Virus record (IMG/VR): IMGVR_UViG_3300045988_161245
Coordinates: 148,685 to 212,684 of that record
Source of the DNA: a virus
Reading direction: 5' to 3' (one strand)
DNA length: 64,000 nt
The position numbers and the translations under genes were made by a program. Every line of letters begins with the position of its first letter. The stretch's first letter is position 1. The notes beneath the pieces were generated by a model that saw only the letters and a program-made list of their open reading frames with translations, was not told the origin of the DNA and made no database searches. This document shows positions 3,525 to 41,228 of this stretch, in pieces.

Positions 3525-3743
3525 TTATTTACATGATATATTATATATTGGAACAAATACCTGATCATTGATTTCGAGCCGTTTTGGATAATTATTGATG
3601 AGTGCATCATATATTTGAATTGCCATTTTTTCTGTTATCACAGTATCTTTTTTGATTGGAATTTTCTGGATAAGATTTTTCATAATTATTCTGGCATTTT
3701 CATTTTCATATATATATTCGTCTGCAGGTATTGGATTAATCAT
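3525..3743 (-). CDS. hypothetical protein
   Basis: 72-aa ORF with RBS GGAGG upstream (plus-strand CCTCC at 3752-3756). Confidence 0.45.
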   Translation of the reverse strand: MINPIPADEYIYENENARIIMKNLIQKIPIKKDTVITEKMAIQIYDALINNYPKRLEINDQVFVPIYNISCK

Positions 3744-3765
3744 AATATCGACCTCCTATTGTAAA

Positions 3766-3842
3766 TAATCGAACAATTGTTTGTTAAATGTTATTGTATA
3801 GAATATACGTTCGATTGTCAAGGCTTTATGTCGAATTGTTGC
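3766..3842 (-). promoter_or_regulatory. three TCGA(N0-2)ATTGT boxes upstream of ORF 3525-3743 (possible operator/promoter)
   Basis: tcgaacaattgt (3769-3780), tcgattgt (3811-3818) and tcgaattgt (3831-3839) in an AT-rich intergenic stretch. Confidence 0.25.
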
Positions 3843-4414
3843 AATTTATTTACCATGATTTTTCTATACTTCTGCTGCTATGTATGGTATTATCATATTT
3901 GTAACTAACATTTCAATTTTAATAAGACTCCAGCACGATTTAAATTGGCCTGCGTGCTGGAGTCTTGTATATGTAAAATTTACTCATTCCGCAACTTGAA
4001 TAGTCCTTATAATAATCAGAACTTAAAAGTACAAATTCCATACTTTTCTCCTAATAAAGTAAAAACCTCTGATATTTGCAAAGAAGAAGATTTTTTCAAA
4101 CCTAATATTGCAAAAATGCGTGATTATCTATATAATAAATATAGAAATCCAAAAACTTCTTGACAAACAAGATAAAAAGTTATATACTACAATATATAAA
4201 AAATTAGAGAAAACTAAATAAAGTGCTTTTTGGATATAGGAGCAAATGAGCCAGCCTATATTTGGAAAGAACACTTTCAAAAAGGACACCTCGTAGGATG
4301 TCCTTTTTGTATTGTTTTTATATTAAACTATATAACAAAGCCCAGCGATCCACACGGACAACTGGGCTTTTATTGTTACTATTCCTCATCATATTCCAGA
4401 CTCATATTTTCCTC

Positions 4415-5963: not shown

Positions 5964-7195
5964 ATTTTTATTTCCTCCACTATAATTGATTGTTTAAGCA
6001 GTTTTATAAAATCAATATTTTTTTCCTTAGATATTTTCAATATCGCTTCAATGTTATTAAACTCTTTTATTACGCAATCTTGTGTGATATTATTTGTTCT
6101 ATTAGATACTATGTGTTTATTTTTCTTTTTATCGACTTTGTTAATGCTTGGTTGTATAAATTTGTGATACATTTCAATCCTATTTTGGTATGCTTCATTC
6201 AATATATTAATATTAATCTTGCTAACTCCTGACATTATAGCAATTTCCTGAGCATCGTGTAATAATGATATTACAATTGAAATGTTACCGCAGGAATGGT
6301 CATATATCCATTTATAAAACTCTTCATTTATTGTTGCATTTTTTATAGTATATCGATATCTAAATAATATATTGCATATGTTTTTAAAGTACTCATCATA
6401 AGAAAGTGCTGTATATTTAAGCCCCATAGTTCTTCTTGCAAGATGTTCGGCACCCTCGAAAAACAATACACTTTCCGGAGTACCAACCATACAAATACTT
6501 ATTCCGCTATTGTTGATAAGCTGTGTAAGAAATCCTATTATATTTTTACCGTTTTTTGAGTTTGCAACATTTTGTATCTCATCAATGATAAGAACACCTA
6601 TATTATTTATTGCTATTGTACTTATTTGGCTTATGAGGGCATCTGTAGTACATTTATCAATAATTTTCCCATTTAAATATTGTGTTTTAAGCATACTGTT
6701 TATCTTCATCAAAATTTCGATCGCAAGACCTTTTACAGATGAATCAAATGGACATTGTACAGTTACAAATGGAATTATATCTGAGAATAAATTGCAATCA
6801 AATTTACAATTTTCAACAATAACATCTACTGCCCTGTTAACGGCTGTACTTTTACCAATACCTGAACTCCCTATTATTGTAAATGAATCAGATCCGCCAA
6901 TTATACTATTAGAGTTTCCTGTTAAAAATCTTTTGTAATTTTCGTATCTTTGCTGTGATGCCAATTTTGAACTCTTCTTTTTTAGTGAGTGATATAAAGA
7001 CAAATATAATTTGTTATAAATCTCTATGGACATTTTAGATGGAATATAAATATCATATAGATTTGATAAAGCAATCAGTTTCTCTCCAATGTCCATATTT
7101 TTACTATTTTCATCATATTTTGGAACAACAGACAATGCTTTTACAAGTCCATCTCCTGATAACATTTTTGGTAATATTTTTGTATAATCATCCAT
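5960..7195 (-). CDS. tnsC: TnsC/TniB-like AAA+ transposition ATPase
   Basis: Walker A GSSGIGKST and Walker B LIIDEIQ. The gene sits between the DDE transposase and tniQ and overlaps both neighbours. Confidence 0.8.
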   Translation of the reverse strand: MDDYTKILPKMLSGDGLVKALSVVPKYDENSKNMDIGEKLIALSNLYDIYIPSKMSIEIYNKLYLSLYHSLKKKSSKLASQQRYENYKRFLTGNSNSIIGGSDSFTIIGSSGIGKSTAVNRAVDVIVENCKFDCNLFSDIIPFVTVQCPFDSSVKGLAIEILMKINSMLKTQYLNGKIIDKCTTDALISQISTIAINNIGVLIIDEIQNVANSKNGKNIIGFLTQLINNSGISICMVGTPESVLFFEGAEHLARRTMGLKYTALSYDEYFKNICNILFRYRYTIKNATINEEFYKWIYDHSCGNISIVISLLHDAQEIAIMSGVSKININILNEAYQNRIEMYHKFIQPSINKVDKKKNKHIVSNRTNNITQDCVIKEFNNIEAILKISKEKNIDFIKLLKQSIIVEEIKI

Positions 7196-9041
7196 TTAAG
7201 ATATCCTCCGTGAAATCAATATGATATTTTCTTTTAGCTCTATTTTTAACAGATGTAGTATATTTTGTATTTAATTTTTGAGGATATTGTACATTAGCTA
7301 CTATCTCTTCCAAAGAATTTGCCAAGTCAATTTGCGCCTGAGTGTTGCTATTACAATGACTATTTACGAGTTTTCGATGCTCTTTTTCGATCAATTCTAC
7401 ATCAGTTAACTCTTTTCCATTATACCTACTTTCAATCAATTTAAACTGTATATAACACCCATTTTCTATAAGCCATACATAGCTTACATTATCTGGATTA
7501 TAAGCAACTGTTACTTCTCCACCAACCAAATATTTTTCAATATAATTCTCATTTTTGTACCTCATTTTATTTACTTTAAGCCCAAATCTACTAAATACAC
7601 CGATGGTTCTTGGAAGTAATGTGAGCATAATTTGTTTTAATGTTACCGGTATTAAGTTAGCTCCTGGAAGTAATTTGTTATATTCAAAAATTCTATTCGC
7701 ATATGGCTCAATATTGTTTTTTATCATATCTTCTGTATAAGGAAAATTCTTTAATATACGCTGCGAATTATAATATACAATGCACTTTACTATGATTTTT
7801 TCAAAAACTTCCATTGTCAAACAAGCATCTTTTCTATAATCATGTACGCCTCTTTCAAGAAAATCAGGTTCAACTATACCTTTATTTTTTAAATAAGGTT
7901 TGTATGTTTCTTGAATTATATTAAAAAATTTTTCTACAACGCCTTTTAATTCAGGACGATATGGTGGCAAATTTTTTAGTGCAACTCCAAGCTCAGTTAT
8001 TTGTTCGAAATTTTCAGATACATATTCTTTTCCCATGTCAGTAACAAATGTCCCTGGGATTTCAGATATGTTCCACTGATCATCGTTTATGAATATACCG
8101 AGTTCTTCACAATGTTTCTTTTTATTAGATACCATATTTTGCATGAGCACTTTTAAACTATAAATGCCACCTTCCCAAGTTAATGCATAGCCGTAACAAA
8201 AACTGCTATATGCGTCAATACAAACTGTTAATATAGGTCTTCCAACTAAGCTGTTTGTCTCATCTATGAGATATATGTCACACACCGTAGAGTCAAGTAA
8301 TCCGGTACCAACTGCCGGTGCAAATTCCTGTACTCCATCGCCTAACAATGGTCTTTTATTTCTTTGGTAATTACTTAAACCACCTCTTGAAATGTAAAAA
8401 GCTTGCATATTTTTTGTCTTACGATAAAAGTATCTGAACTGATAAAAAGATGGTATATTAGGTTGTAACCTTCCATCTATATCGCAATATTTTTCTTTTA
8501 ACATAAGCAAATAAGAAGACTTTAAACTATATCTGTTTGTGCTATAAAAATATTTATTTAAAGCCCATCTCATATTCTTTTCATCTTTAGTAAGTGACTT
8601 TTCTGTAATACTACTTTTTGGTACAAGTACACAAATATTTTGGAAAATAAGATACTTGTAAAAGTAGTTTCTAAGAGACTGTTTACTTATATTTCTTTCT
8701 TCACATATTTGATTTACCAATGAGGTACGCTTGTGTTTATCATCCATAAAGGAAAGTAATGGAGCAATCATATTGTACCGATCGTATGCTATCTTTTTAT
8801 TATGCTCTGAAGCTTCTGATATGTCGAATACAGGCTCCTTTGTCTCTTGTATAAGTAAATCCTCATCACACAAAATAGCGTCCTTAAAATCAATTTTATG
8901 CGCTGTATACGGCATTTTGGGATTTAAACAATCAATGATAAAAACTGATTGATCTGATTCTTTTAAAACTCTTGCTATTGTACCATTAAACTTATACAAT
9001 TCATTCTTCATTAATAACAATCCCCCAATCTGATATACCAT
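7188..9041 (-). CDS. tnsB: TnsB-like DDE (Mu/retroviral-integrase type) transposase
   Basis: 617 aa. Has an rve-type core (DSTVCDIYL.., CIDAYSS.., TDMGKEY) and a Mu-transposase-like C-terminal beta-barrel region. The gene order tnsA-tnsB-tnsC-tniQ supports the call. Confidence 0.8.
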   Translation of the reverse strand: MVYQIGGLLLMKNELYKFNGTIARVLKESDQSVFIIDCLNPKMPYTAHKIDFKDAILCDEDLLIQETKEPVFDISEASEHNKKIAYDRYNMIAPLLSFMDDKHKRTSLVNQICEERNISKQSLRNYFYKYLIFQNICVLVPKSSITEKSLTKDEKNMRWALNKYFYSTNRYSLKSSYLLMLKEKYCDIDGRLQPNIPSFYQFRYFYRKTKNMQAFYISRGGLSNYQRNKRPLLGDGVQEFAPAVGTGLLDSTVCDIYLIDETNSLVGRPILTVCIDAYSSFCYGYALTWEGGIYSLKVLMQNMVSNKKKHCEELGIFINDDQWNISEIPGTFVTDMGKEYVSENFEQITELGVALKNLPPYRPELKGVVEKFFNIIQETYKPYLKNKGIVEPDFLERGVHDYRKDACLTMEVFEKIIVKCIVYYNSQRILKNFPYTEDMIKNNIEPYANRIFEYNKLLPGANLIPVTLKQIMLTLLPRTIGVFSRFGLKVNKMRYKNENYIEKYLVGGEVTVAYNPDNVSYVWLIENGCYIQFKLIESRYNGKELTDVELIEKEHRKLVNSHCNSNTQAQIDLANSLEEIVANVQYPQKLNTKYTTSVKNRAKRKYHIDFTEDILNG

Positions 9042-9360: not shown

Positions 9361-9388
9361 TATTTTACCTCCTATTTTTGAAATGATT

Positions 9389-9557
9389 TTTCCTAAAAAC
9401 GGCTATTTTCTTGCTAAAAACGATTGATTTTTTCCTAAAAACGCATTTTTAGGGTTATTTTCGTTTTTAGCATTTCATTTTTAGGAAAAACAAAATACTC
9501 GCAAGCCCAGTAAAATCAATGGTTTGCGGATTTTCCTAAAAACGTTTCCTAAAAACG
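9389..9557. repeat. array of 13-bp TTTCCTAAAAACG repeats (5 direct, 3 inverted/degenerate): candidate TnsB binding sites
   Basis: Direct copies at 9389-9401, 9410-9422 (cttgctaaaaacg), 9431-9443, 9532-9544 and 9545-9557. Inverted copies at about 9443-9454, 9461-9471 and 9476-9490. Confidence 0.6.
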
Positions 9558-9564
9558 AGGTTAA

Positions 9565-9987
9565 AAATACTATGTTGAGAGGCAATTACTTTTAGTCTTT
9601 TTTGGGGCAAAAATTTTATTCTTTTATTCCGGTCAAAATTTGCTTTGAATTTGCTCTGACGCAAGATTTTCCTCTTTTGTGCATGTTAATTTGACTACAA
9701 TAAAATCACAATTTTATCGGAAAAATGACCCCCTTTAATCCCTTATTTTTATTGACTTTTCGAAAGCCGATTTTTGGAAAAATCGCGATTTTTAGCTATT
9801 TTGGGCTGTTTTTTGAACTTTTCGTCAAATTGCACAAAAAAATGACCTTGGATAAAAATATCAAAGGTCATTTTCTATGTTCTTATTCTTATAAGTTTCT
9901 TGTAAGCAAACTATTTTATTTGATGTCTCAGGCTAAAAAAATTGCCCCATTTTACGCTAAAGTTTATTGCCCTCGAACATAGTATTT
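9565..9987. repeat. 423-bp unit bounded by ~53-bp imperfect terminal inverted repeats (MITE-like, or outermost transposon end structure)
   Basis: The left arm is aaatactatgttgagaggcaattacttttagtc..ggggcaaaaatttt (9565-9617). The reverse complement of 9935-9987 is aaatactatgttcgagggcaataaactttagcg..ggggcaattttttt. The interior holds the palindrome cgatttttggaaaaatcg and hairpin aatgaccttgg..caaaggtcatt. Confidence 0.55.
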
Positions 9988-10087
9988 CTGACCTTGAAGT
10001 CATTATACGAGATTTATATATTTCTTGCAATAGTTCGAGTTCCAATTTCGCAATATTTTACTTATTTTGCTTAATATATTACGGATA

Positions 10088-10222
10088 TTAATCAATATCA
10101 TCATCATCATCTTTATTTCTTCCGGCAGTAAGACAAGCTGTAAGAATAAGTCCAACTACTCCACCAACCACAAATGTGCAGCCTACAATACAAATAAATG
10201 TACCAATACCAAGTGTAATCAT
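10088..10222 (-). CDS. 44-aa hydrophobic micro-protein with acidic tail
   Basis: Hand-translated MITLGIGTFICIVGCTFVVGGVVGLILTACLTAGRNKDDDDDID. Its ATG overlaps the TGA of the DHFR gene (ATGA), which suggests translational coupling. Confidence 0.45.
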   Translation of the reverse strand: MITLGIGTFICIVGCTFVVGGVVGLILTACLTAGRNKDDDDDID

Positions 10223-15070: not shown

Positions 15071-16528
15071 TTAATCACACTTACTCCAACCACAATCTTT
15101 ACATGTATTGCAACCACCTTCAAAAACTAAATTTCCACCGCATTGAGGACATTTTGCTGTTTTTGATTTATCAACAATGATTTTCTTTTTGGGCTGTTTT
15201 GGTGTATCAATTATCTCTTCTGAATCATCAGAAATTTCATCCTGCATTTCTTTGTACATGTCAATAAGAGCATTTCCGATAGCAACAGGACAACAAGATC
15301 CTTTTGATGTATCGTGCTTTGTTGCTGTTCTTACCGCATATGACGGACATGTTCCGCTTGACTTAAGCTGGTCGATGATTGAATAAATATCAATTCCACC
15401 TCTTGCTGCAAGAGAAATCATTCTGGAAAGCCCGATCATGAATTGGTTACATCCGCCTGAACTTCCTTTACTTAAATATGTCTCAAGGAGTTCTCCTGTA
15501 TCTGGATCAAAGAATGCTTCACAATGTAATGTTCCACACCCAGTCTGTAATGTACGTTTCTTACCAACACAGTTATCATCAGCTTTAATGATCATTCCTC
15601 TGCCAAGAGTTGTTTTAGGCTTTTCAGATGTTTCATCATCTTTTTTACTATCTGATGTTGTAAGAATTCCTGCACGTTTACATCCATCACGGAAAATTGT
15701 GACACCTTTAAGTCCTGCTTCCCAGGCTGTCATATATAATCCTTCAACTTGCTCTACTGTAAAGTCGTTTGGAACATTAACCGTAGAACTAATTGATGCA
15801 TCAATATGTGTCTGCCAAATACTCTGCATATAGATACGATTCTTATAATCAAGTGTCTGTGCAGTTACAAAATAATCTGGTAATTCAGAATCGTCTTTTA
15901 GATTATTTTTTTCCATATAATCTTTTACGATTGGTGTATACACTTTGTAATACTCATCATGTCCTTTAAGAGACTCTGTTTTTCTTGTATAGTAGTTTGC
16001 GAAAATTGGTTCGATTCCACCAGATACTCTAAGCATTGTAGAAAGTGTTCCGGTTGGAGCAATTGTAAGAAGTTGAGAATTTCTAAGACCATACTCTTTT
16101 ACAAGCTGTTTTGTTTCACCAAGAGCATTTTTTGAATAATAAGCAGATTGCTCAACTGCTTCCGGATTATATTTTGGATATGGACCATACTCTTTTGCTA
16201 ATAAAGCAGATGTTTTAAGTGCTTCATCAGCCATTGCATGACCGATCATATCACATAAATCAATAGCTTCAGGACTTCCATATTTAATACCCATCTTAAT
16301 AAGTAAATCTGCAAGACCAAAAATTCCAAGTCCAATCTGTCTCCAATCTCTTACAGAATCTCTCTGTTCCTGTAATGGATGTAATGGTAATCCCTCGTCA
16401 AGGACTTCGTTTAATCCGATTGTTGCAATATGTACTGTTTTTCTAAAATCATCAAAATTAAATCCATGTGGAGTTGTAAACTCAGCTAAATTAATACTTC
16501 CGAGAAGGCAGCTTCCACCGGCTGGTAA
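15071..16528 (-). CDS. nrdJ: class II (B12-dependent, NrdJ-like) ribonucleotide reductase, exon 3 of 3
   Basis: Begins LPAGGSCLLGSINL, continuing the catalytic NPCxExxL..GxCxLGSINL motif from exon 2. Ends with the Zn-ribbon CPQCGGNLVFEGGCNTCKDCGWSKC typical of NrdJ. Confidence 0.8.
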   Translation of the reverse strand, partial: LPAGGSCLLGSINLAEFTTPHGFNFDDFRKTVHIATIGLNEVLDEGLPLHPLQEQRDSVRDWRQIGLGIFGLADLLIKMGIKYGSPEAIDLCDMIGHAMADEALKTSALLAKEYGPYPKYNPEAVEQSAYYSKNALGETKQLVKEYGLRNSQLLTIAPTGTLSTMLRVSGGIEPIFANYYTRKTESLKGHDEYYKVYTPIVKDYMEKNNLKDDSELPDYFVTAQTLDYKNRIYMQSIWQTHIDASISSTVNVPNDFTVEQVEGLYMTAWEAGLKGVTIFRDGCKRAGILTTSDSKKDDETSEKPKTTLGRGMIIKADDNCVGKKRTLQTGCGTLHCEAFFDPDTGELLETYLSKGSSGGCNQFMIGLSRMISLAARGGIDIYSIIDQLKSSGTCPSYAVRTATKHDTSKGSCCPVAIGNALIDMYKEMQDEISDDSEEIIDTPKQPKKKIIVDKSKTAKCPQCGGNLVFEGGCNTCKDCGWSKCD

Positions 16529-17699
16529 CATTATGTTCCATAAGGTTCACAACGCCTTATGCGTTCTTCAAGAACAGCTATATGTTTCCATATAGTTCAG
16601 ACTATATCTTCACTGTATAATACAGGGTTAGCACTTCCATTGTCATAAGTTTACAATGTACTCTCTTTCGAGATAGTCGTTGAGGTTGGTCAATTTAACT
16701 TGGTCAGAGTTAAATTATGATATCCTTTCTAATTTAATCCAATCTTTATGTTTTGATCCATTAGCAGCGTCCATTATTTTTATAGACTCATCTGGTAATT
16801 TCCATTTATATTTAGGTTTAGGTTTTCTAAGTGCTTGTTTATGAGCTTCAGACTTAGGTTTTCCTTTTAGGCTTTGACTTACATGCTTATTCCACTCAGC
16901 TGTATGTATTACTTTTTTACCAGATTCTGAAATTTTTTTATTCATTTCTTCACTATTATGATAACCAGTTCTACTTTTATTACCAATTCCATATTTGTTA
17001 TTTAAATTTATTTCTCTTAAGATTTTTTTCGTTTTTTCTGATTGAGGATGAACAGGTTTCCCAGTTAAAGATTTTGAGATATTATTTTTCCATTCTTCTG
17101 TTTTTATAATTTTTGATATCTTTTCTTTTATTTCAGGTCGTTGCATTGCTTCTTTTGTTTTTTGAGATATTTTATTTTTCCATTCTTGTTTTTCTATCTC
17201 AGTATATCCTTTTATTAAATTTCCTCCGTCACCGCCTTCTGCAATATTATATCCATTTGGACGAATTGTATTATATTTATTTATATAAAATTTTTCTAAT
17301 TTACATAATTCTTCTTTATTATTACAAGTTGCAATAATGTCTTTTTTATAATAATGATATTTTATATTTTGCTCATATACCCATTTATGATCTGAACGTC
17401 TCTTACTATCTAATTTATCATTGCCAAATCTTTTTCTATATGAGTTCCACAATAATATTCCACTTCCCATATAATATTTATTATTGTCATTTTCATTCTT
17501 ACCAATATAACTTAAATTCGTTATTAAATTTGTTATTTTATAAATTTGCATATTCTATGTTTATTGACCAACCTGCTGATTGACTCTATTTGATAAATTA
17601 TTAGGGTAAGTGACCAATCTTACATTAATTTCCTATTATCAACTTAACGAGTTGTTCCAGCATTTCACTAACTTTATAGAGCCCCTACCGGTTTTATTA
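16529..17699 (-). other. putative group I intron 2 in nrdJ (carries GIY-YIG HEG)
   Basis: The reading frame breaks after NPCAEEP and resumes at LPAGGSC. The inferred upstream exon ends in U and the intron ends in G. Hairpin-forming non-coding flanks (16529-16714, 17552-17699) surround a free-standing endonuclease ORF. Confidence 0.7.
16715..17551 (-). CDS. GIY-YIG homing endonuclease with NUMOD3-type repeats
   Basis: N-terminus IYKITNLITNLSYIGK..YYMGSG (GIY-YIG). Repeated GKP(x)..SE.TK/HK motifs follow in the C-terminal DNA-binding part, as in I-TevI/Seg proteins. Confidence 0.8.
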   Translation of the reverse strand: MQIYKITNLITNLSYIGKNENDNNKYYMGSGILLWNSYRKRFGNDKLDSKRRSDHKWVYEQNIKYHYYKKDIIATCNNKEELCKLEKFYINKYNTIRPNGYNIAEGGDGGNLIKGYTEIEKQEWKNKISQKTKEAMQRPEIKEKISKIIKTEEWKNNISKSLTGKPVHPQSEKTKKILREINLNNKYGIGNKSRTGYHNSEEMNKKISESGKKVIHTAEWNKHVSQSLKGKPKSEAHKQALRKPKPKYKWKLPDESIKIMDAANGSKHKDWIKLERIS

Positions 17700-35128: not shown

Positions 35129-35311
35129 TTTAAGAACCTCCTTTGAAATATATATAAATTTTTTAATTGTAACCTGTATCTAAACCTAGTAAGTCACTAG
35201 GATAATAAAAGGGAAATTTATAAGATAAACAGCCCAGTGGCTGAAAATCGAACCATATAAAATTGAATTTTTATTTTGGAAATGTTGGTGAAGAAAATCA
35301 CCAGTTAGAAA

Positions 35312-35827
35312 TTAATTATCAAAATGATCATAATACCGATAAAGGCTTACTACATCGTCAAGATTATCTTCTGATCCGTCATAGAAAACATACGAACCTT
35401 GCAGATAGCCACCAAGTACTTCTTCAATATATGTCCTTACTATTCTCAAAGTTTTACCAGAATAATAGCTGTCATCTACGAAAATAAATGGCTGATTCTT
35501 ATAAGAATCCAATTTCCAATTAGAATATTGAATTGGTTTACCCTTTCTTAAACTGCCATTAATATACTCAATACTGCAGTCGCTTAAAAACCATTTATAT
35601 TTCAATCTCAATGCTGCAATCTTTTCTCCAATTTCACCTGATATGATGATATTTTTTACACTTGATTGTGAGATATGTGTTAGATATGATATTAGAAAAT
35701 CTTCATCGTTTTTGATTAAATCATCTAGTTCATTGAAATATTCTTCTCCACCGCCGTGAAGATCAATACACTTTTTTGTAATTTGACTCATTCGGTGCTT
35801 CAGTTCATTTAGTGTTAACCGTTTCAT
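35312..35827 (-). CDS. phosphoribosyltransferase-domain protein
   Basis: PRPP-binding signature FIFVDDSYYSGKTL near the C-terminus. Confidence 0.6.
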   Translation of the reverse strand: MKRLTLNELKHRMSQITKKCIDLHGGGEEYFNELDDLIKNDEDFLISYLTHISQSSVKNIIISGEIGEKIAALRLKYKWFLSDCSIEYINGSLRKGKPIQYSNWKLDSYKNQPFIFVDDSYYSGKTLRIVRTYIEEVLGGYLQGSYVFYDGSEDNLDDVVSLYRYYDHFDN

Positions 35828-35876
35828 AACTTATACTTCCTCGTTTTTGTTTAGTTTTTACTTATTTCTAAGCAAG

Positions 35877-35934
35877 TACACAGGATAGGATTCGAACCTA
35901 CATTCTAATGTCCTGCCATTTAGACGACCTGTGC
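35877..35934 (-). ncRNA. 58-nt mini-tRNA-like gene lacking the anticodon arm
   Basis: The minus strand reads GCACAGG-TC-GTCT-AAATGGCA-GGAC-ATTAGAAT-GTAGG-TTCGAAT-CCTAT-CCTGTGT-A. It has a 7-bp acceptor, a normal D arm (A14, GG) and a normal T arm, but only 8 nt where the 17-nt anticodon arm plus variable loop should be. Confidence 0.5.
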
Positions 35935-36058
35935 TACCGATTATATAAAATGAAAGAAATTTTAATTGAGACACTGTAATTTTTATTAATACCCTATAGG
36001 TGATTCGATATAATTAATGCTCCAAGAGCGCAATACATATAAATCACAGTACCTCAAA

Positions 36059-36141
36059 TACGGATGATGGGACTCGAACCCACAAGGTTGTTAACCGCTG
36101 GAACCTAAATCCAGTCTGTTTTCCTATTTCAGCACATCCGC
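36059..36141 (-). tRNA. tRNA-Leu (anticodon TAG), type II
   Basis: Hand-folded. Acceptor GCGGATG/CATCCGT, D arm CTG-AAATAGGAAAA-CAG, anticodon arm CTGGA-TTTAGGT-TCCAG, long variable arm CGGTTAACAACCTTG, and T arm with loop TTCGAGT. No encoded CCA. Confidence 0.85.
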
Positions 36142-36526
36142 TTATTTTGGCAAGAACCTGTATAACTTGCCAGTAACTCTTATACTCTCACTTATACAAA
36201 CAAGGTGACGTGAGCGAATTACTTTTTAGAAAAAGATCCTTGTTATATTCTTCTTCTCAGATTTTTATGTAGGCGACCATCGCAGAAACCTACTGCCTTA
36301 TCTCTGCTACTCAACAGATCTCGTATATCTCTTACGCTGAATCTGGCTTCCGCAGATTACGGACTATCGTAGAATCCACACAGGACTCATATGAGATATT
36401 TTTGGCGACGGTTTTTCGTGCTTTATTTAATTGTATTTTGTATTTTTACGCGCTTTGCTTAATAAATCTTTTGAGTTCACATTCACCGGTATCCTGATTT
36501 TTACTACAAAATTTTTATTAAGCAAG

Positions 36527-36600
36527 TGGACCATCTGTGATTCGAACACAGAAATCTTTCGCTTATGAGGCGACTGCCTTAACCGTTTGGCTAATGGTCC
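36527..36600 (-). tRNA. tRNA-Met/Ile2 (anticodon CAT)
   Basis: Acceptor GGACCAT/ATGGTCC, D arm GCCAAACGGTTAAGGC, anticodon loop CTCATAA, T arm CTGTG-TTCGAAT-CACAG. No encoded CCA. Confidence 0.85.
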
Positions 36601-36827
36601 TTAACTTGATAGAGCAAACCCTGAAATCTCTATCTCTCATTTATTTTAAGACTAATGAGTTTATCCCACATATCAAACGCTTAATGCGGCTACATCAAGC
36701 TGTGGCCGACCATTTGTACATCGAAATGCTAACCATAGCGCATTCGATCATAAGGATTGAAAGTCTGTGTTTTTCTACTCGGTTTATTAAGGTCGTATGA
36801 AAATACATCTAAAAACAGTGGACCTAG

Positions 36828-36900
36828 CTGGGCTGGCAGGATTCGAACCTGCGAAATGGTAGAGTCAAATTCTACTGCCTTTCCACTTGGCTACAACCCA
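36828..36900 (-). tRNA. tRNA-Gln (anticodon TTG)
   Basis: Acceptor TGGGTTG/CAGCCCA with U1:A72 (a Gln hallmark), D arm GCCAAGTGGAAAGGC, anticodon arm GTAGA-ATTTGAC-TCTAC, T arm GCAGG-TTCGAAT-CCTGC. Confidence 0.85.
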
Positions 36901-36967
36901 ATAATGAGATAGTATATCGTTCCATTCTTCTACTATCTCGTTCCGCAATGTAAAATGGAAACGGAAC

Positions 36968-37040
36968 ATGGAACTAAATGGAATCGAACCATTGTTTACC
37001 TGTTATACCAACAGGTGTGCTGCCACTTCATCACAACCCA
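36968..37040 (-). tRNA. tRNA-like pseudogene/chimera (GTA-type anticodon arm, unpaired acceptor)
   Basis: T arm AATGG-TTCGATT-CCATT and hairpin CCTGT-TGGTATA-ACAGG are present. The 5' end GGGTTGTGATGAAGTGG copies the start of the neighbouring tRNA-Gln and cannot pair with the 3' strand TAGTTCC. Confidence 0.35.
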
Positions 37041-37574
37041 AAAACAATTTCATATCTTCAGTATCTACTCATCTTACTTTACGCTTAGACTTTCTTCGAG
37101 AGATCTGCGTAGCCATCTTCACATCCACACCTCAGATGATATGTATCTACAATAGTTACTTCCAATATGAAATTATTTCTCTTTCAAATTCCTTCTATTA
37201 AGTCTATATGGTAACAACATAGTGTAATCTACATTAGAAGTTCATCAAAAGAATTTTATTATATCCATATACATAAAATATATAATGCTCCTTAATTACA
37301 ATTCCCACATTTAACGTATGTGTAGAGCTATAACGCCATTTGAATATCTGATAAGTATCAGCACTTTGGAGGGATATATCGTTTCACCACATCCACAGGT
37401 TAACCACGCCTTATTCAAAATGGATAGCATAAGAGTCCATCAGCCATAGGAGCAGACTCCACGGAGTTCCATAACGATGACTTTTGGATTTATTATGTCA
37501 ATGATTGTTTTGCACCGCCTATATTCGTAACTATGCTATTCAATTTATATTCTAATAGGAAGAAACTCTTCCAG

Positions 37575-37648
37575 AAGAACATATGGGATTTGCACCCATG
37601 ACGGTCACAACCTATGTGGTTGCCGCTCTCCTCCTGAGCTAATGTTCT
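37575..37648 (-). tRNA. tRNA-like gene, CAT anticodon in a non-canonical loop (A33) and T-loop TGCAAAT
   Basis: Perfect acceptor AGAACAT/ATGTTCT, D arm GCTC-AGGAGGA-GAGC, anticodon arm GCAAC-CACATAG-GTTGT, T arm ATGGG-TGCAAAT-CCCAT. Positions 33 and 55 deviate from universal tRNA residues. Confidence 0.45.
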
Positions 37649-37953
37649 TTCCAAAAACAAAGATTTAATAAATATTACAAACATTTTTGAGATCTCAATC
37701 TTCTTATAAGGCTTACGCCGATCCCACTCGACCCTGGAACTTCTGAAGATTTTTATGAACTCTGCTTCATTCATAAAAGTTTAGCCATTGAAGAATACCT
37801 CTAGCAGTTTCGGTTTCTTACGCATAGCTTCAAGATTTCAGAACTACTGCGCTCTGTAGGTGGTGGATCATACACGATATTGTGTAGTCAAACGGTACGG
37901 CAACTCGATGTTGAGAAGCGTTTTCTGTGACACCACATATCTGAAATCTCTAA

Positions 37954-38020
37954 CAGGACATCTGGGAGTCGAACCCAGTACAGACTGCTCAAAGTCTCTT
38001 CACCATCGAAGTCATGTCAC
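37954..38020 (-). tRNA. compact 67-nt tRNA-like gene with a 6-nt (or 8-nt) anticodon loop
   Basis: GTGACAT-GA-CTTC-GATGGT-GAAG-AGACT-TTGAGC-AGTCT-GTA-CTGGG-TTCGACT-CCCAG-ATGTCCT-G. One acceptor mismatch. The anticodon loop is not 7 nt. Confidence 0.4.
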
Positions 38021-38077
38021 ACCTCAACACTTTAGGAGGTATAAGAAATAAGAAATCTATTTGGGTAGCTAACCCAA

Positions 38078-38146
38078 ATCCTGGATGCGGATTCGAACCG
38101 GCAAATACATGAGTTTCATGTGTTATAACCATTTAACTATCCAGGA
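38078..38146 (-). tRNA. tRNA-like gene whose anticodon arm is replaced by a 6-bp/3-nt-loop hairpin
   Basis: Perfect acceptor TCCTGGA/TCCAGGA, TA, D arm GTTA-AATGGTTA-TAAC, then ACATGA-AAC-TCATGT. The T arm has loop TTCGAAT but a weak stem. It is followed by hairpin TTGGGTTAGCTACCCAA. Confidence 0.45.
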
Positions 38147-38676
38147 CGTTCCAACTGCGGCTTTGTTAGAACTAAGAAACAAGGTTTTAATAACCGCATT
38201 GATTTATTTATAAGATGAACTTCACCACTTATCAGCCTTGTACAAACCACAGAGCCGATATAATCATGCTACAAAACTTTTTCAAGGTTTTTATCAAACT
38301 TTGGAACTTATCAACTTTACTACGTGAACTTTATATCAAAAATAAGCTTTGAATTTTGAGCTTTAAGGTTTGAACTTTCTATCTTTAAACTTTACAGTCA
38401 TCCAAAATAAGTATTATATAATCTACCAATTATAGAATTTTGTAATGTTCAGATTATCATTCTGACCTTTTTTACATTAATTTTTGAGGCCAGCTTGTTT
38501 AATTTTTTACTTTACTCTATGCTGGCTGAAAGACTAAAGGATTATAGTTCAGTGGTTTTCGATAAGCAATGAAGGAAATCTTTTATACAACTATTCGTAT
38601 AACAATGGCTATTTAGCTATTATATGGATCAAAAATCGCTTGTATAATTTTTAACTAATAATTCACTGACCATTTA

Positions 38677-39327
38677 TTAATACTCAATTGTAACTGTTGT
38701 TAATGCATTACTTGTGCTTAAAACGGAGTCTACTTCAGCTTCAAATGAGGAAATTTCGTCAGATAAAACACGGATTTTATTTTGTACATTAATCGGATCA
38801 ACTAACGCCCATGTGTTAAGATCAACGTACTGCTGTTTAGCTTTTGTAACTTCATCGGTAGAAGTTTTACCCTCTTTCTGTCCAAAAAGACCAGTTACAT
38901 AATTTTCTGATTTACTTTCAAGAGTTTCATTCTCTTTATTTGTTTTTGCCTGTGCCTGAGAAAGCTGTTGCTGCATTCTGTCAAGCATCTGTCTCTTAAA
39001 CATCATACTGTTATTTTTCATGTTGATTGCTTCTGCTACAGTACGTTCTTCTTCGTTTTCTCCAATTTTAATCTTAACTTTTGTTACTGCATTTGAAAGC
39101 ATTACTGCTCTCTGCAGAGCTTCAAGTCTACTCATAAGATCTACATCTTTGTCGTAACATCCTGTAACAATCTTCTCATATTCATCAACATCCATTCCAG
39201 AAATTTTTGACTGAGAATTTTTCTTGCAAGATACAAAAATTGAATTGTAAATCTCACTCTGGATTCTGTCTTTAAGGATTTTGATTTCTGCTAATGCTTT
39301 ATGTACTGTCATAGTTTCTTTCGTCAT
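38677..39327 (-). CDS. coiled-coil hypothetical protein (distant paralogue of 40023-40544?)
   Basis: 216-aa ORF with RBS AAGGAG. The only gene inside the tRNA island. Confidence 0.55.
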   Translation of the reverse strand: MTKETMTVHKALAEIKILKDRIQSEIYNSIFVSCKKNSQSKISGMDVDEYEKIVTGCYDKDVDLMSRLEALQRAVMLSNAVTKVKIKIGENEEERTVAEAINMKNNSMMFKRQMLDRMQQQLSQAQAKTNKENETLESKSENYVTGLFGQKEGKTSTDEVTKAKQQYVDLNTWALVDPINVQNKIRVLSDEISSFEAEVDSVLSTSNALTTVTIEY

Positions 39328-39398
39328 AATGTTCTTCTCCTTTAAATTGAATTTTATTCTTTAAATTTTTAACTTTGAAATACTCATTTCTGAGTTAA

Positions 39399-39470
39399 CT
39401 GCACCTGTTGGAATCGAACCAACATCTGATGATCCAAGGTCATCCGTGATAACCATTACACTAAGATGCT
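39399..39470 (-). tRNA. tRNA-like gene, anticodon loop CCTTGGA (TTG with C33, or shifted TGG); A1/A72 mismatch
   Basis: AGCATCT-TA-GTGTAATGGTTATCAC-G-GATGA-CCTTGGA-TCATC-AGAT-GTTGG-TTCGATT-CCAAC-AGGTGCA-G. The cloverleaf is good but position 33 is C. Confidence 0.55.
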
Positions 39471-40022
39471 TTATATTGACGGTTGTTACACCGTCATATA
39501 TGTCTTCGTCAGACAAATTTTTATTCACTCAGATTCGCTACTTTCTAATCCGTTCTCTTATGAACTGCTGCTTCAGTCACCTGGCAGATTCGCCCTTGTT
39601 CCATACCAATCACTTGTATGTACTCTCTATTTTCCAAGTTAGGCTTCGCCTCATTTATATGAGGGTCGTAAGTTAAGTTTATCGTCATTCTTATCTGGAC
39701 TCTCTATTATTTACTTCTCAATTGTTTTTTCATCTATTCTTAAAAAGTATCTCTAACCGAACTTGATACCGAAAAGTTTTTAATTACAGTTACTAATTAA
39801 TTTGAGCCTTTATAATCTGGATCTAAGAATTAAATATGCAGACCTATCAATTAACCTTGCTGCATTACTATTGAATAAATACCTTACTGAGCTTTAATTC
39901 TATCAATAAACTCAATCAATAACTTACTATACTTGTATTAAATGTATATTTGCTTTTATATAAATAATCTATATGTAAAAGTAACTGTAATACGGAAGAT
40001 TGATTACATTAATTACTTCCCA

Positions 40023-40544
40023 TTAGAGATCAATATCAATCTCAAATTTGTACTCTACTGAACTGTTTACGATATTAAGCTCTTCCTGAATTTCTGAAAT
40101 TTCGGTATACACACTGTCATATTTTTTCTTTGCGTCCTCAAGATCATAATTCAGATAAGTGTATTCAATATCTTTATTTAATGAAGTATTTCGTTTTTTC
40201 TTCTGTCTGGTTGCAAGACCACTATAGATGCCTTTTTCTCTTTCGAGTATAGCTAATCTAATAATGTTGTCACCGACAGTCAATCCATTCTTCATAACTA
40301 CTGAGTTATTAAACAGAGACTTTGCATGTCTGATTGTAATTATCTTCCTATCAATCTCATCAATCTGAGCAATCACTTCATTTAAATTGAATTCTGCTTC
40401 CTGCTCTGCTTTAATTTGATCGTAATTCTCGGTTACTGCTACAACAAATGTTGACATTTTAGAAATCTTATCGGTAAAAATACCTTTTTCTTGCTCTAAC
40501 TTCTTAATCAGCTTATTAGCTGCATCAGATGTAACTTTTATCAT
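40023..40544 (-). CDS. coiled-coil hypothetical protein
   Basis: 173-aa ORF with RBS GGAGG. Its architecture is similar to 38677-39327. Confidence 0.55.
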   Translation of the reverse strand: MIKVTSDAANKLIKKLEQEKGIFTDKISKMSTFVVAVTENYDQIKAEQEAEFNLNEVIAQIDEIDRKIITIRHAKSLFNNSVVMKNGLTVGDNIIRLAILEREKGIYSGLATRQKKKRNTSLNKDIEYTYLNYDLEDAKKKYDSVYTEISEIQEELNIVNSSVEYKFEIDIDL

Positions 40545-40586
40545 GTTTACTACCTCCTGTTATACTCTTCTTATTCGTTTTTCATT

Positions 40587-41228
40587 TTATTCTGAAAAAT
40601 CACAAACTTTAATTTTTGTAATTACTCTTCTACCCATTCTGTCAAGCATTTCGACAGCAGGTCTGCATACAAGTCCTTCCATATTAGCTGTTCCAATATG
40701 AGATTTTGGTTTGGTCTTTACAAAATCAATTGCTTCTTGAAGTGTACCGGTAAGAACAATATCAACTATATCAATTCCAAAACTCTTTGCAATATCTTCT
40801 ACAGCATCACGTTTTAGCCATAAGTTTTGATCTGGAAGATACACATCAAAAAGAATGAATGATACGTCATCTCTATAAAGTCCACCACCCTTTTGAATTT
40901 TAGGACCATATCCTTCACCAAACAGGATTACATTCATTTCACCAAACTTCTGCTCAAACATTTCTTCATTAATAATACCGCCAAATAGTTCATTTAGTTT
41001 GTTTACCAATGGAACAGGAATTTGTGCTCTTTCTGTACGTCCCTGGAACGAAACTTTATGTCCATCCCAAACAACACCAATGTTTGTGCCATCAATTTTT
41101 TCTGAACAAAGCCATTTATTATCTTTTAAATATTCAACAGTTTCATTTCTGAACTTACAATCAATAAGCTTCTTTGTGCCATCGTTATCTCTTTCAAACG
41201 GTGTATCAATTTTTATATAAGGAATCAT
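40587..41228 (-). CDS. ATP-dependent RNA ligase (small Rnl / DRB0094-like family)
   Basis: Nucleotidyl-transferase motif I SEKIDGTN (KxDG), then FGEGYG, EGLVCRP and KIKVCDF motifs. 213 aa. Confidence 0.65.
   Translation of the reverse strand: MIPYIKIDTPFERDNDGTKKLIDCKFRNETVEYLKDNKWLCSEKIDGTNIGVVWDGHKVSFQGRTERAQIPVPLVNKLNELFGGIINEEMFEQKFGEMNVILFGEGYGPKIQKGGGLYRDDVSFILFDVYLPDQNLWLKRDAVEDIAKSFGIDIVDIVLTGTLQEAIDFVKTKPKSHIGTANMEGLVCRPAVEMLDRMGRRVITKIKVCDFSE

Follow-up and report, generated by a model that had tools for sequence, protein, structure and literature searches.

In the tRNA gene cluster of phage T4, two stable RNAs of unknown function, 'species 1' and 'species 2' (rnaC and rnaD), lie between tRNA genes and are released by processing of the precursor. 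tRNA-like structures serve as 3'-end processing signals in MALAT1/mascRNA and in the tRNA punctuation of mitochondria, which are eukaryotic and organellar cases, and ring-forming or helical proteins such as TRAP (period of 5-6 nt) and HutP (UAG every 7 nt) read short repeats at regular spacing. GOLLD and ROOL form RNA-only assemblies. Both are large structured non-coding RNAs that are common in phages and often found beside tRNA genes (PMC5737381; PMC12286853), and phage tRNAs with altered anticodon loops escape the tRNA nucleases of the host, a form of counter-defence (PMC10264068; PMC11464382). Here I describe an island at positions 35830-40022 of a 64,000-nt stretch of viral DNA (positions 148,685 to 212,684 of IMG/VR record IMGVR_UViG_3300045988_161245; the whole stretch is called the window below), which holds a large structured RNA with the Rfam motif RAGATH-27 as its 5' domain, the gene for a 216-aa protein directly upstream of it, a second structured RNA and nine tRNA-type elements.

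The explanation that I favour, with a probability of roughly 0.6 for the whole of it, is that the island is a cluster of RNA genes on one strand, located among early or replication-type genes of a gut phage with a genome of about 200 kb and Clostridia as hosts. It would have four contents: a module of one protein and one RNA, a further RNA of about 150 nt, tRNAs with tRNA-like units, and debris. The spacers between the tRNA-type elements, which a preliminary description of this DNA had placed at 36142-36526, 36601-36827, 37041-37574, 37649-37953, 38147-38676 and 39471-40022, are correct to within 1 nt, and I refer to them in that order as spacers F to A. The module of protein and RNA, in and next to spacer B, consists of the following parts.

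38677-39327, minus strand: coding sequence (CDS) of a helical protein of 216 aa, phrog_1491 family (PHROG match, E 4.7e-48)
38217-38577, minus strand: large structured RNA of about 361 nt (full-length alignment of 26 sequences, RNAalifold)
38560-38574, minus strand: 5' strand of the closing helix P1, CTTCATTGCTTATCG, pairing with 38220-38234
38220-38234, minus strand: 3' strand of P1, TGATAAGTGGTGAAG, pairing with 38560-38574
38488-38573, minus strand: RAGATH-27 (Rfam RF03100), which forms the 5' domain of this RNA (score of 87.5 bits with a gathering score of 76.1)
38288-38397, minus strand: heptad array, starting CUGUAAAG, with about 14 A-tracts (YAAAG), one every 7 nt, and no predicted pairing (alignments)
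38236-38287, minus strand: 3' hairpin domain, with the outer helix CCUUG/CAAGG and inner helices (covariation)

Spacer B holds a large structured RNA whose ends are joined by a covarying helix. The RNA is composed of P1, the RAGATH-27 domain, variable hairpins, the heptad array of A-tracts and the 3' hairpin domain; it is present as a single copy in the window, and its length in relatives ranges from 330 to 487 nt. With the 26 full-length sequences RNAalifold predicts 36 pairs, 23 of them with compensatory changes, and finds P1 de novo. This helix is 15-16 bp long and brings together segments that lie 330-460 nt apart. In 21 distinct sequences 94% of its positions are paired and compensatory double changes are seen in 10 of the 16 pairs. 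In seven loci missed by the RAGATH-27 profile, a segment located 7-30 nt past the stop codon can pair with the tail after the 3' hairpin domain, 13-16 of the 16 positions being complementary; the sequences are wholly different, and the conserved GAAAAC follows the segment each time. The segments of these divergent loci were chosen as the best complement in the upstream region, a choice that is biased towards pairing; the register is, however, checked independently of this choice by the GAAAAC motif and by the distance from the stop codon. When five of the divergent loci are added to the 21 earlier sequences, 93.5% of positions in the resulting 26 are paired and the number of pairs with double changes rises to 13 of 16; with this set none of 500 shuffles reaches any of the five measures used, and partners slid against each other are only 32-59% paired. 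P1 contains many G.U pairs that exist only on the minus-strand transcript, so that the structure belongs to this transcript, which favours RNA over duplex DNA.

The RAGATH-27 domain covers the whole Rfam model (positions 1-86 of 86), and the RNA of the window is a member of this family by score and by context, which changes what the family is. Within the domain, RNAalifold predicts de novo a pseudoknot helix (38539-38531/38518-38510) that covaries (columns 40-48/64-72) and crosses the hairpin 38526-38521/38494-38489. A conserved block of about 190 nt follows downstream (window approximately 38400-38212, nhmmer), in which the A-tracts are markedly periodic: across 44 sequences 43% of the spacings between A-runs are exactly 7 nt, compared to 8% in shuffled sequences. 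The outer helix CCUUG/CAAGG of the 3' domain is 100% paired with three covarying pairs, and the domain as a whole, with 14 pairs, is 79.7% paired compared to 65% after shuffling and 31-45% with slid partners. The family was searched by sequence profiles, which I judged sensitive enough; a 16-base pattern of RAGATH-27 in IMG/VR returned one new true locus, the other matches being mostly due to chance or located in coding sequence, and an 18-base pattern in genome contigs returned about 70 chance matches and seven true loci.

The 5' part of RAGATH-27 can also be read as a promoter in the window (TTGCTT-17-TATAAT). I dropped this reading because the TATAAT is not conserved (TACAAC in locus L054) and because the stretch covaries as the strand of a helix. 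Likewise, GTTCATAAGAGAAC and TAGCGAATCTGAGTGAAT, considered as repeated regulatory motifs, have no repeats in the window.

The preliminary description had suggested a large phage RNA such as GOLLD or ROOL in the island and had named an Rfam search and covariation as ways to check it. There is indeed a large structured RNA beside tRNA-type genes in spacer B; however, it is neither GOLLD nor ROOL, for which no Rfam match is found in the whole window at the gathering threshold or in 35300-40600 at E<=5. Rfam gives RAGATH-27 for the island, whereas at E<=5 it gives nothing there for GOLLD, ROOL, transfer-messenger RNA (tmRNA, also sought with ARAGORN) or group I introns (RF00028; for spacer A alone none at E<=10). 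Covariation is found for the RNA of spacer B and for the core of spacer F, but spacers C, D and E receive no such support.

The gene upstream of the large RNA belongs to a family that is widespread, with 1850 clusters of homologues at 90% identity (E<=1e-5), all annotated as hypothetical. PHROGs labels the family 'tail fiber', a label that I distrust for this protein, as the gene sits among replication genes and beside tRNAs. There is no Pfam match and no sequence match in PDB, and the predicted model (a helical bundle with small beta hairpins, predicted local distance difference test score 81) has no structural match. The linkage of gene and RNA was counted in 84 loci that were fetched for encoding homologues of the protein: a sequence resembling RAGATH-27 directly follows the CDS in 72 (nhmmer), and the downstream block is present in 81, including loci in which the protein is only 43-50% identical. 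The official Rfam model matches after the CDS in 12 of 17 sampled loci. The search in the opposite direction, with the RNA pattern only in bacterial genome contigs, gives the same result, as the CDS directly precedes the RNA in all seven true loci. The distance from the stop codon to the 5' strand of P1 is 4-40 nt in most loci, and that to the start of the RNA is approximately 100 nt in the window.

As the protein and the RNA are inseparable in relatives (81 of 84 loci), they would be expected to act together. An unpaired array with a period of 7 nt, enclosed by helices and always beside the same protein gene, suggests that the protein binds along the array, and subunits of the 216-aa protein bound side by side on the heptads would be the likeliest form of this interaction. 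The complete picture, which I put forward tentatively and would not yet rate as probable, is a phage ribonucleoprotein that has escaped recognition so far: about 14 subunits on the YAAAG array, which is looped by P1, capped by the pseudoknot and the 3' hairpins, and provided with tRNA-like signals for maturation.

An alternative is that the large RNA acts in cis, as the structured 3' untranslated region (3' UTR) of the mRNA for the 216-aa protein, which it would stabilise or regulate, for example by blocking 3' exonucleases or controlling read-through into the tRNAs, and that it is not a separate RNA bound by protein. The short distance between stop codon and P1 in most loci (7-30 nt in the divergent ones) would be expected of such an element, as would the constant position of the RNA on the same strand and downstream of the CDS, and a promoter scan detected no convincing promoter between the two. 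However, 330-490 nt with a closing helix, a pseudoknot and a periodic array of 110 nt far exceed the known bacterial 3' UTR stabilisers in complexity, and the distance of about 100 nt in the window fits this less well. A cis-acting role is compatible with binding of the protein; I consider it rather unlikely.

Other elements are found near the module in individual relatives. Two of them are orphan RNAs of the Rfam catalogue: in locus L134 FuFi-1 (RF02986) is located at 3664-3836 on the minus strand, and L110 has two copies of int-alpA (RF02996) at 6723-6793 and 7433-7500. In two distant relatives group I introns (L014 4363-4640 and L013 2113-2390) interrupt a large gene upstream of the 216-aa homologue; in L013 this gene encodes 1139 aa when uninterrupted.

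The second conserved structured RNA of the island is the core of spacer F.

36262-36420, minus strand: second structured RNA of about 150 nt, core of spacer F (alignments, RNAalifold)

Identity among the variants of the clade is 75-85% in this core, and compensatory changes occur in at least four helices, including the GTAGG...CCTAC hairpin, one of four hairpins quoted in the preliminary description, all of which can be found in the sequence. RNAalifold predicts 24 pairs, nine with compensatory changes, from six sequences, and the z-score of the minimum free energy (MFE) of spacer F is -2.36. More distant copies were collected by a pattern scan combined with nhmmer. In three of these (L217, L218 and L220) the core exactly fills a gap of 145-152 nt between two tRNAs, in arrays in which the other neighbouring tRNAs are only 3-4 nt apart.

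The tRNA-type elements were identified with ARAGORN, Rfam and the boxes of the T-arm. ARAGORN finds five at default settings and eight at 85% thresholds, including 37953-38021, and the Rfam tRNA model adds 38078-38146 (43.8 bits), 35877-35934 (39.3 bits) and 36969-37040 (27.2 bits, below threshold). The island contains nine T-arm boxes of the GGTTCGAATCC type (repeat families D1, D3 and D20). The count of three canonical and six aberrant elements, as first reported, stands; all nine are on the minus strand. As canonical I regarded a cloverleaf with an acceptor stem of 7 bp, an anticodon loop of 7 nt with U33 and a T-loop of the UUCRANY type, which is what the tRNAs for Gln, Met and Leu show (51.6-60.1 bits, clean cloverleaf in ARAGORN); the other six deviate.

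36827-36900, minus strand: canonical tRNA-Gln(UUG) (ARAGORN, Rfam)
36526-36600, minus strand: canonical tRNA-Met(CAU), with the trailer ACTTGCTTA (ARAGORN, Rfam)
36059-36141, minus strand: canonical tRNA-Leu(UAG) (ARAGORN, Rfam)
39399-39470, minus strand: variant tRNA-Gln(UUG), located 71 nt upstream of the CDS, that has C33, G37 and a mismatched A1.A72 (ARAGORN, Rfam)
38078-38146, minus strand: tRNA-like element 1, in which the acceptor stem has 8 bp and the anticodon arm is collapsed, whereas the D and T arms are normal (Rfam tRNA, 43.8 bits)
38059-38079, minus strand: terminator-like hairpin with a T-rich tail directly after tRNA-like element 1, kept in relatives, of putative function (consensus scan)
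37953-38021, minus strand: tRNA-like element 2, in which the anticodon loop has 6 nt and the acceptor stem contains mismatches (ARAGORN at reduced threshold, T-arm box)
37574-37648, minus strand: tRNA-Met(CAU)-like element with A33 (loop CACAUAG), T-loop UGCAAAU and no Rfam match (ARAGORN)
36968-37041, minus strand: dead chimeric tRNA with G33, a weak or broken acceptor stem and a mutated anticodon loop (Rfam 27.2 bits, gathering score 29)
35877-35934, minus strand: mini tRNA-like element of 58 nt with acceptor, D and T arms, in which a stub of 4 bp and 4 nt replaces the anticodon arm (Rfam tRNA, 39.3 bits)

The mini element and the tRNA-Met have the trailer ACTTGCTTA in common, as had been noted before. 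A further observation concerns the trailer of this tRNA-Met, TTGCTTAATAAAAATTTTG (36507-36525), which pairs with 36455-36473, located 33 nt downstream, over 19 nt with 89% complementarity.

The loop CCUUGGA of the variant tRNA-Gln is kept in the clade, compared to CUUUGAC in other phages, and the loop CACAUAG of the tRNA-Met-like element, which is itself restricted to the window and the L001 type, recurs in the distant phage L129. Altered loops with C33 or A33 may make some of these tRNAs poor substrates for anticodon nucleases of the host. Their retention in the clade, the recurrence of A33 in a distant phage and the RNA ligase gene next to the island would fit such an escape. It cannot explain the four elements in which the anticodon arm is non-decoding. 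The RNA ligase gene (40587-41228) adjoining the tRNA island may, as an observation in its own right, be linked to the repair of tRNAs that were cut by nucleases.

In the tRNA-like units the half formed by the acceptor and T arms is kept and the anticodon arm is altered. tRNA-like element 1, which begins 70 nt past the 3' end of the large RNA (38217), is 97-100% identical in all close relatives and exceeds the flanking spacer in this respect; element 2 is 91-100% identical, and for the two together the range of 91-100% compares with 81-99% in the adjacent spacers. In several phages of the clade L112-L130 a tRNA backbone lies just upstream of the homologue of the 216-aa gene (L129 3885-3960; L112, L116 and L124 at approximately 3883-3963), with the acceptor and T arms kept and the anticodon arm scrambled in the sister phages of L129; in L129 this backbone is the one with the loop CACAUAG. 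Of 57 distinct loci, 27 have a tRNA or tRNA-like unit that begins 3-68 nt past the large RNA.

This anatomy, with the nine tRNA-type units and both RNAs on one strand and the RNAs bounded by tRNA ends, is what would be expected of a T4-like tRNA operon punctuated by RNase P and RNase Z, and the punctuation reading of the preliminary description is consistent with it. It fits because units 1 and 2 exceed their flanks in conservation, because of the clade with scrambled anticodons and because of the adjacency in 27 of 57 loci. One long transcript would pass through the island, RNase P and RNase Z would cut it at the tRNAs and tRNA-like units, and the cuts would release the tRNAs, two stable RNAs and the mRNA; I infer the single transcript and its processing, like the binding of the protein to the RNA, from the arrangement of the sequences.

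The fourth content of the island consists of remains and of spacers to which I can assign no function.

39512-39679, minus strand: fossil of a td-like (IA2) group I intron in spacer A, including both copies of GCGAATCTG (intron profile and alignment)
37041-37573, minus strand: spacer D, without open reading frame (ORF), Rfam match or fold signal (MFE z-score -0.22)

The motif GCGAATCTG, which had been reported as recurring, occurs twice, near 39593 and 39536. A profile of group I introns matches 39580-39512 (nhmmer, E 1.1e-12), and an intron of locus L280 aligns to spacer A over 168 nt (E 5.7e-6). The pattern GTTCATAAGAGA-N8-16-TAGCGAA, taken from spacer A, occurs in at least 119 IMG/VR stretches, always after GATATAGTC and a P9 hairpin, which identifies it as the 3' tail of td-like group I introns. 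Spacer A retains an R-like element, P9 and the P9.1/P9.2 tail, and is homologous to the peripheral 3' domain (P9 to P9.2) of td-like phage introns. Alignment with related introns shows that P8 and J8/7-P7', with the GATATAGTC core, are missing, and together with the lack of an Rfam score this makes the element a fossil. No gene is interrupted and flanking exons are absent, a complete tRNA-Gln being located 41 nt downstream, and the upstream neighbour varies (a 173-aa gene in the window, the RNA ligase in L009). The 3' half of spacer A is kept in all close relatives; a hairpin in this spacer shows two compensatory changes, and an indel of 1 nt breaks its only candidate small ORF. Elsewhere in the window, at 16578-16793 on the minus strand, there is probably an intact group I intron (RF00028, 39.2 bits with a gathering score of 50, E 1.9e-8; intron profile E 2.3e-20). 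It sits between the ORFs 16715-17551 and 15071-16531, so that one gene is probably split.

In the chimeric element 36968-37041 the 5' acceptor strand comes from a tRNA-Gln and the body from an amber suppressor tRNA, as is seen in the alignment with an intact tRNA(CUA) (L009 8428-8502); this dead copy is the only suppressor tRNA of the window. Suppressor tRNAs are seen in close and in distant relatives, with the anticodon CUA in L009 (the copy just mentioned) and UUA in L075 (3838-3909), and some phages of this group may recode stop codons. Judged from their sequences, both the intron fossil and the chimeric suppressor tRNA appear to be debris. Relatives are mosaic, with whole blocks present or absent, such as the tRNA-Met-like element 37574-37648 and spacer D, which the L003 type lacks and which is 97-100% identical in the relatives that have it. 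Spacers C, D and E and the 5' half of spacer A are shuffled as cassettes among relatives, and an all-versus-all comparison of the spacers gave weak, non-significant similarities only (E 0.2-0.8).

Such remains raise the question whether the island is a graveyard only, a decaying tRNA array with remnants of mobile elements in which neutral spacers look conserved because the relatives are close. The dead suppressor tRNA, the intron without core, the mosaic of cassettes, the spacers C, D, E and 5' A without homologue beyond the clade and the weak z-scores of folding all point in this direction. However, the RNA of spacer B covaries heavily across phages in which the partner protein is only 43-50% identical, the core of spacer F is kept with compensatory changes in unrelated tRNA arrays, and tRNA-like units 1 and 2 exceed the adjoining sequence in conservation. 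The covariation largely refutes decay as an explanation for spacers B and F, and for the island as a whole I consider it improbable.

Alternatively, the A-tract array could act at the level of DNA, as iterons of an origin, as bent DNA or as a site for packaging or partition. Short and phased repeats that are rich in A would suit such a role, as would neighbours of the replication type, here AAA ATPases and an RNA ligase. However, the period of 7 nt does not match the helical repeat of DNA, the helices that enclose the array show compensatory changes and many strand-specific G.U pairs, and the orientation of the array relative to the CDS is constant, which makes a DNA element very improbable.

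The island is poor in coding sequence. As the preliminary description had it, the only credible CDS in these 4.2 kb is 38677-39327, which is in the standard code the sole ORF of at least 70 aa clear of tRNA-type elements (minus strand), and the remaining ORFs are short and overlap the tRNA-type elements; ORF scans, also with recoded stops, and the ORF list bear this out. On the minus strand, which is the coding strand, the ORF-free gaps of 35828-37492, 37775-38676 and 39328-40022 are among the largest in the 64-kb window. Two other stretches of the window, 9361-10218 and 3744-4414, likewise contain no ORF of 60 aa or more on this strand. That the spacers encode proteins through small ORFs or an alternative code, a possibility already raised in the preliminary description and in line with the tRNA(CUA) and tRNA(UUA) of relatives, can practically be dismissed, as recoding of TAG, TGA or TAA opens no convincing or long ORF in the island (the candidates overlap tRNA elements), the conserved parts contain indels that are not multiples of three and heptads rich in stops, blastx of the island against all open frames of 341 fetched loci gives no match of the spacers beyond the close clade, and the genes flanking the island read normally in the standard code.

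Several observations weigh against the favoured explanation of the island as a cluster of functional RNA genes, or limit parts of it. Fold energies of single sequences are unimpressive (spacer z-scores of -0.22 to -2.36), and the promoter scan gave 18 sites compared to 23.9 expected, no better than chance. The second RNA draws its support from six sequences, and the conservation of the tRNA-like units was measured within one shallow clade. For spacers C, D and E no homologue beyond the clade, no Rfam match and no support from covariation were found, and the same holds for the 5' half of spacer A; the consensus fold of spacer C even has an unfavourable covariation term, with L001 only partly in the alignment. 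In the model of the 216-aa protein no RNA-binding fold can be recognised, and the protein has neighbours neither in structure (best Foldseek match E 0.03, TM-score 0.38) nor in sequence, so that the argument for its binding to the RNA comes from the linkage of the genes. Finally, the large RNA has no tRNA behind it in about half of the lineages, which means that punctuation is not essential to it and that the RNA is independent of the tRNAs.

The window has a GC content of approximately 32% and tightly packed genes, nearly all on the minus strand, and the neighbours of the island are an RNA ligase gene (PF09414, E 3e-20, 40587-41228, minus strand) and genes of AAA ATPases. Related IMG/VR contigs are 180-222 kb long. 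A search of INPHARED, which holds deposited phage genomes, gave matches at the level of tRNAs only and no close relative. Bacterial genome contigs with the module come from Clostridia (Flintibacter muris, Lachnospiraceae, Blautia, Pseudobutyrivibrio and Christensenellales), with two exceptions, from Acholeplasmataceae and from a Phocaeicola metagenome bin. One of the hosts, Flintibacter muris DSM 110149, is a cultured strain, in which the module (locus L197) is located on NZ_CALPCP010000004.1, of 195,824 nt; this contig, possibly a resident phage related to that of the window, could be usable for experiments.

With these observations RAGATH-27, listed until now as an orphan motif of 86 nt, becomes the 5' domain of an RNA of 330-490 nt with a fixed protein partner, and an unexplained motif turns into a two-component system that can be tested. 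The family of protein and RNA is very abundant in phages of gut Clostridia, with at least 1850 protein clusters at 90% identity, and it widens the set of large phage RNAs beside tRNAs past GOLLD and ROOL. The island is also a clear case of a phage tRNA cluster with stable RNAs other than tRNAs and with tRNA-shaped units that do not decode, which bears on how such clusters are processed: 'aberrant tRNAs' annotated in phages may be processing signals, decoys or fossils instead of decoders.

Of the known systems, td-like (IA2) introns resemble spacer A in its P9 hairpin, the GUUCAUAAGAGAAC segment, the hairpin with the GUAGCGAA loop and parts of the upstream core (at least 119 intron copies), but spacer A is without P8, the J8/7-P7' core (GAUAUAGUC), flanking exons and an Rfam score. 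Two potentially decoding tRNAs, with C33 (Gln) and A33 (Met), resemble the tRNAs that escape nucleases, and an RNA ligase gene is adjacent. As in MALAT1/mascRNA, a tRNA-shaped unit right after a long RNA would let RNase P make the mature 3' end, although here the link is positional and half of the lineages do not show it. Like rnaC and rnaD of T4, the core of spacer F lies beside tRNAs, as does the large RNA in many lineages; their processing would be similar, and no relation in sequence to the T4 RNAs is expected. The large RNA shares with GOLLD and ROOL its habit of lying beside tRNA genes; however, it is smaller (about 360 nt), carries a periodic and unstructured array of A-tracts and has a protein gene as an obligate partner. 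This array, a run of short purine motifs at a fixed period of 7 nt in an otherwise unpaired stretch, is comparable to the targets of TRAP and HutP, but its motif is YAAAG, in about 14 copies, and the 216-aa protein is dissimilar to both proteins. As for RAGATH-27 itself, a literature search by name found no paper that mentions it; the supplement of the original survey was outside this search, so that an earlier extension of the motif is possible. The window matches the whole model of 86 nt, and relatives match at the same position. In Rfam the motif is one hairpin after 48 conserved 'unpaired' nt, whereas here these nucleotides form strands of the long-range helix and of the pseudoknot, in what is the 5' quarter of an RNA of 330-490 nt tied to one protein family.

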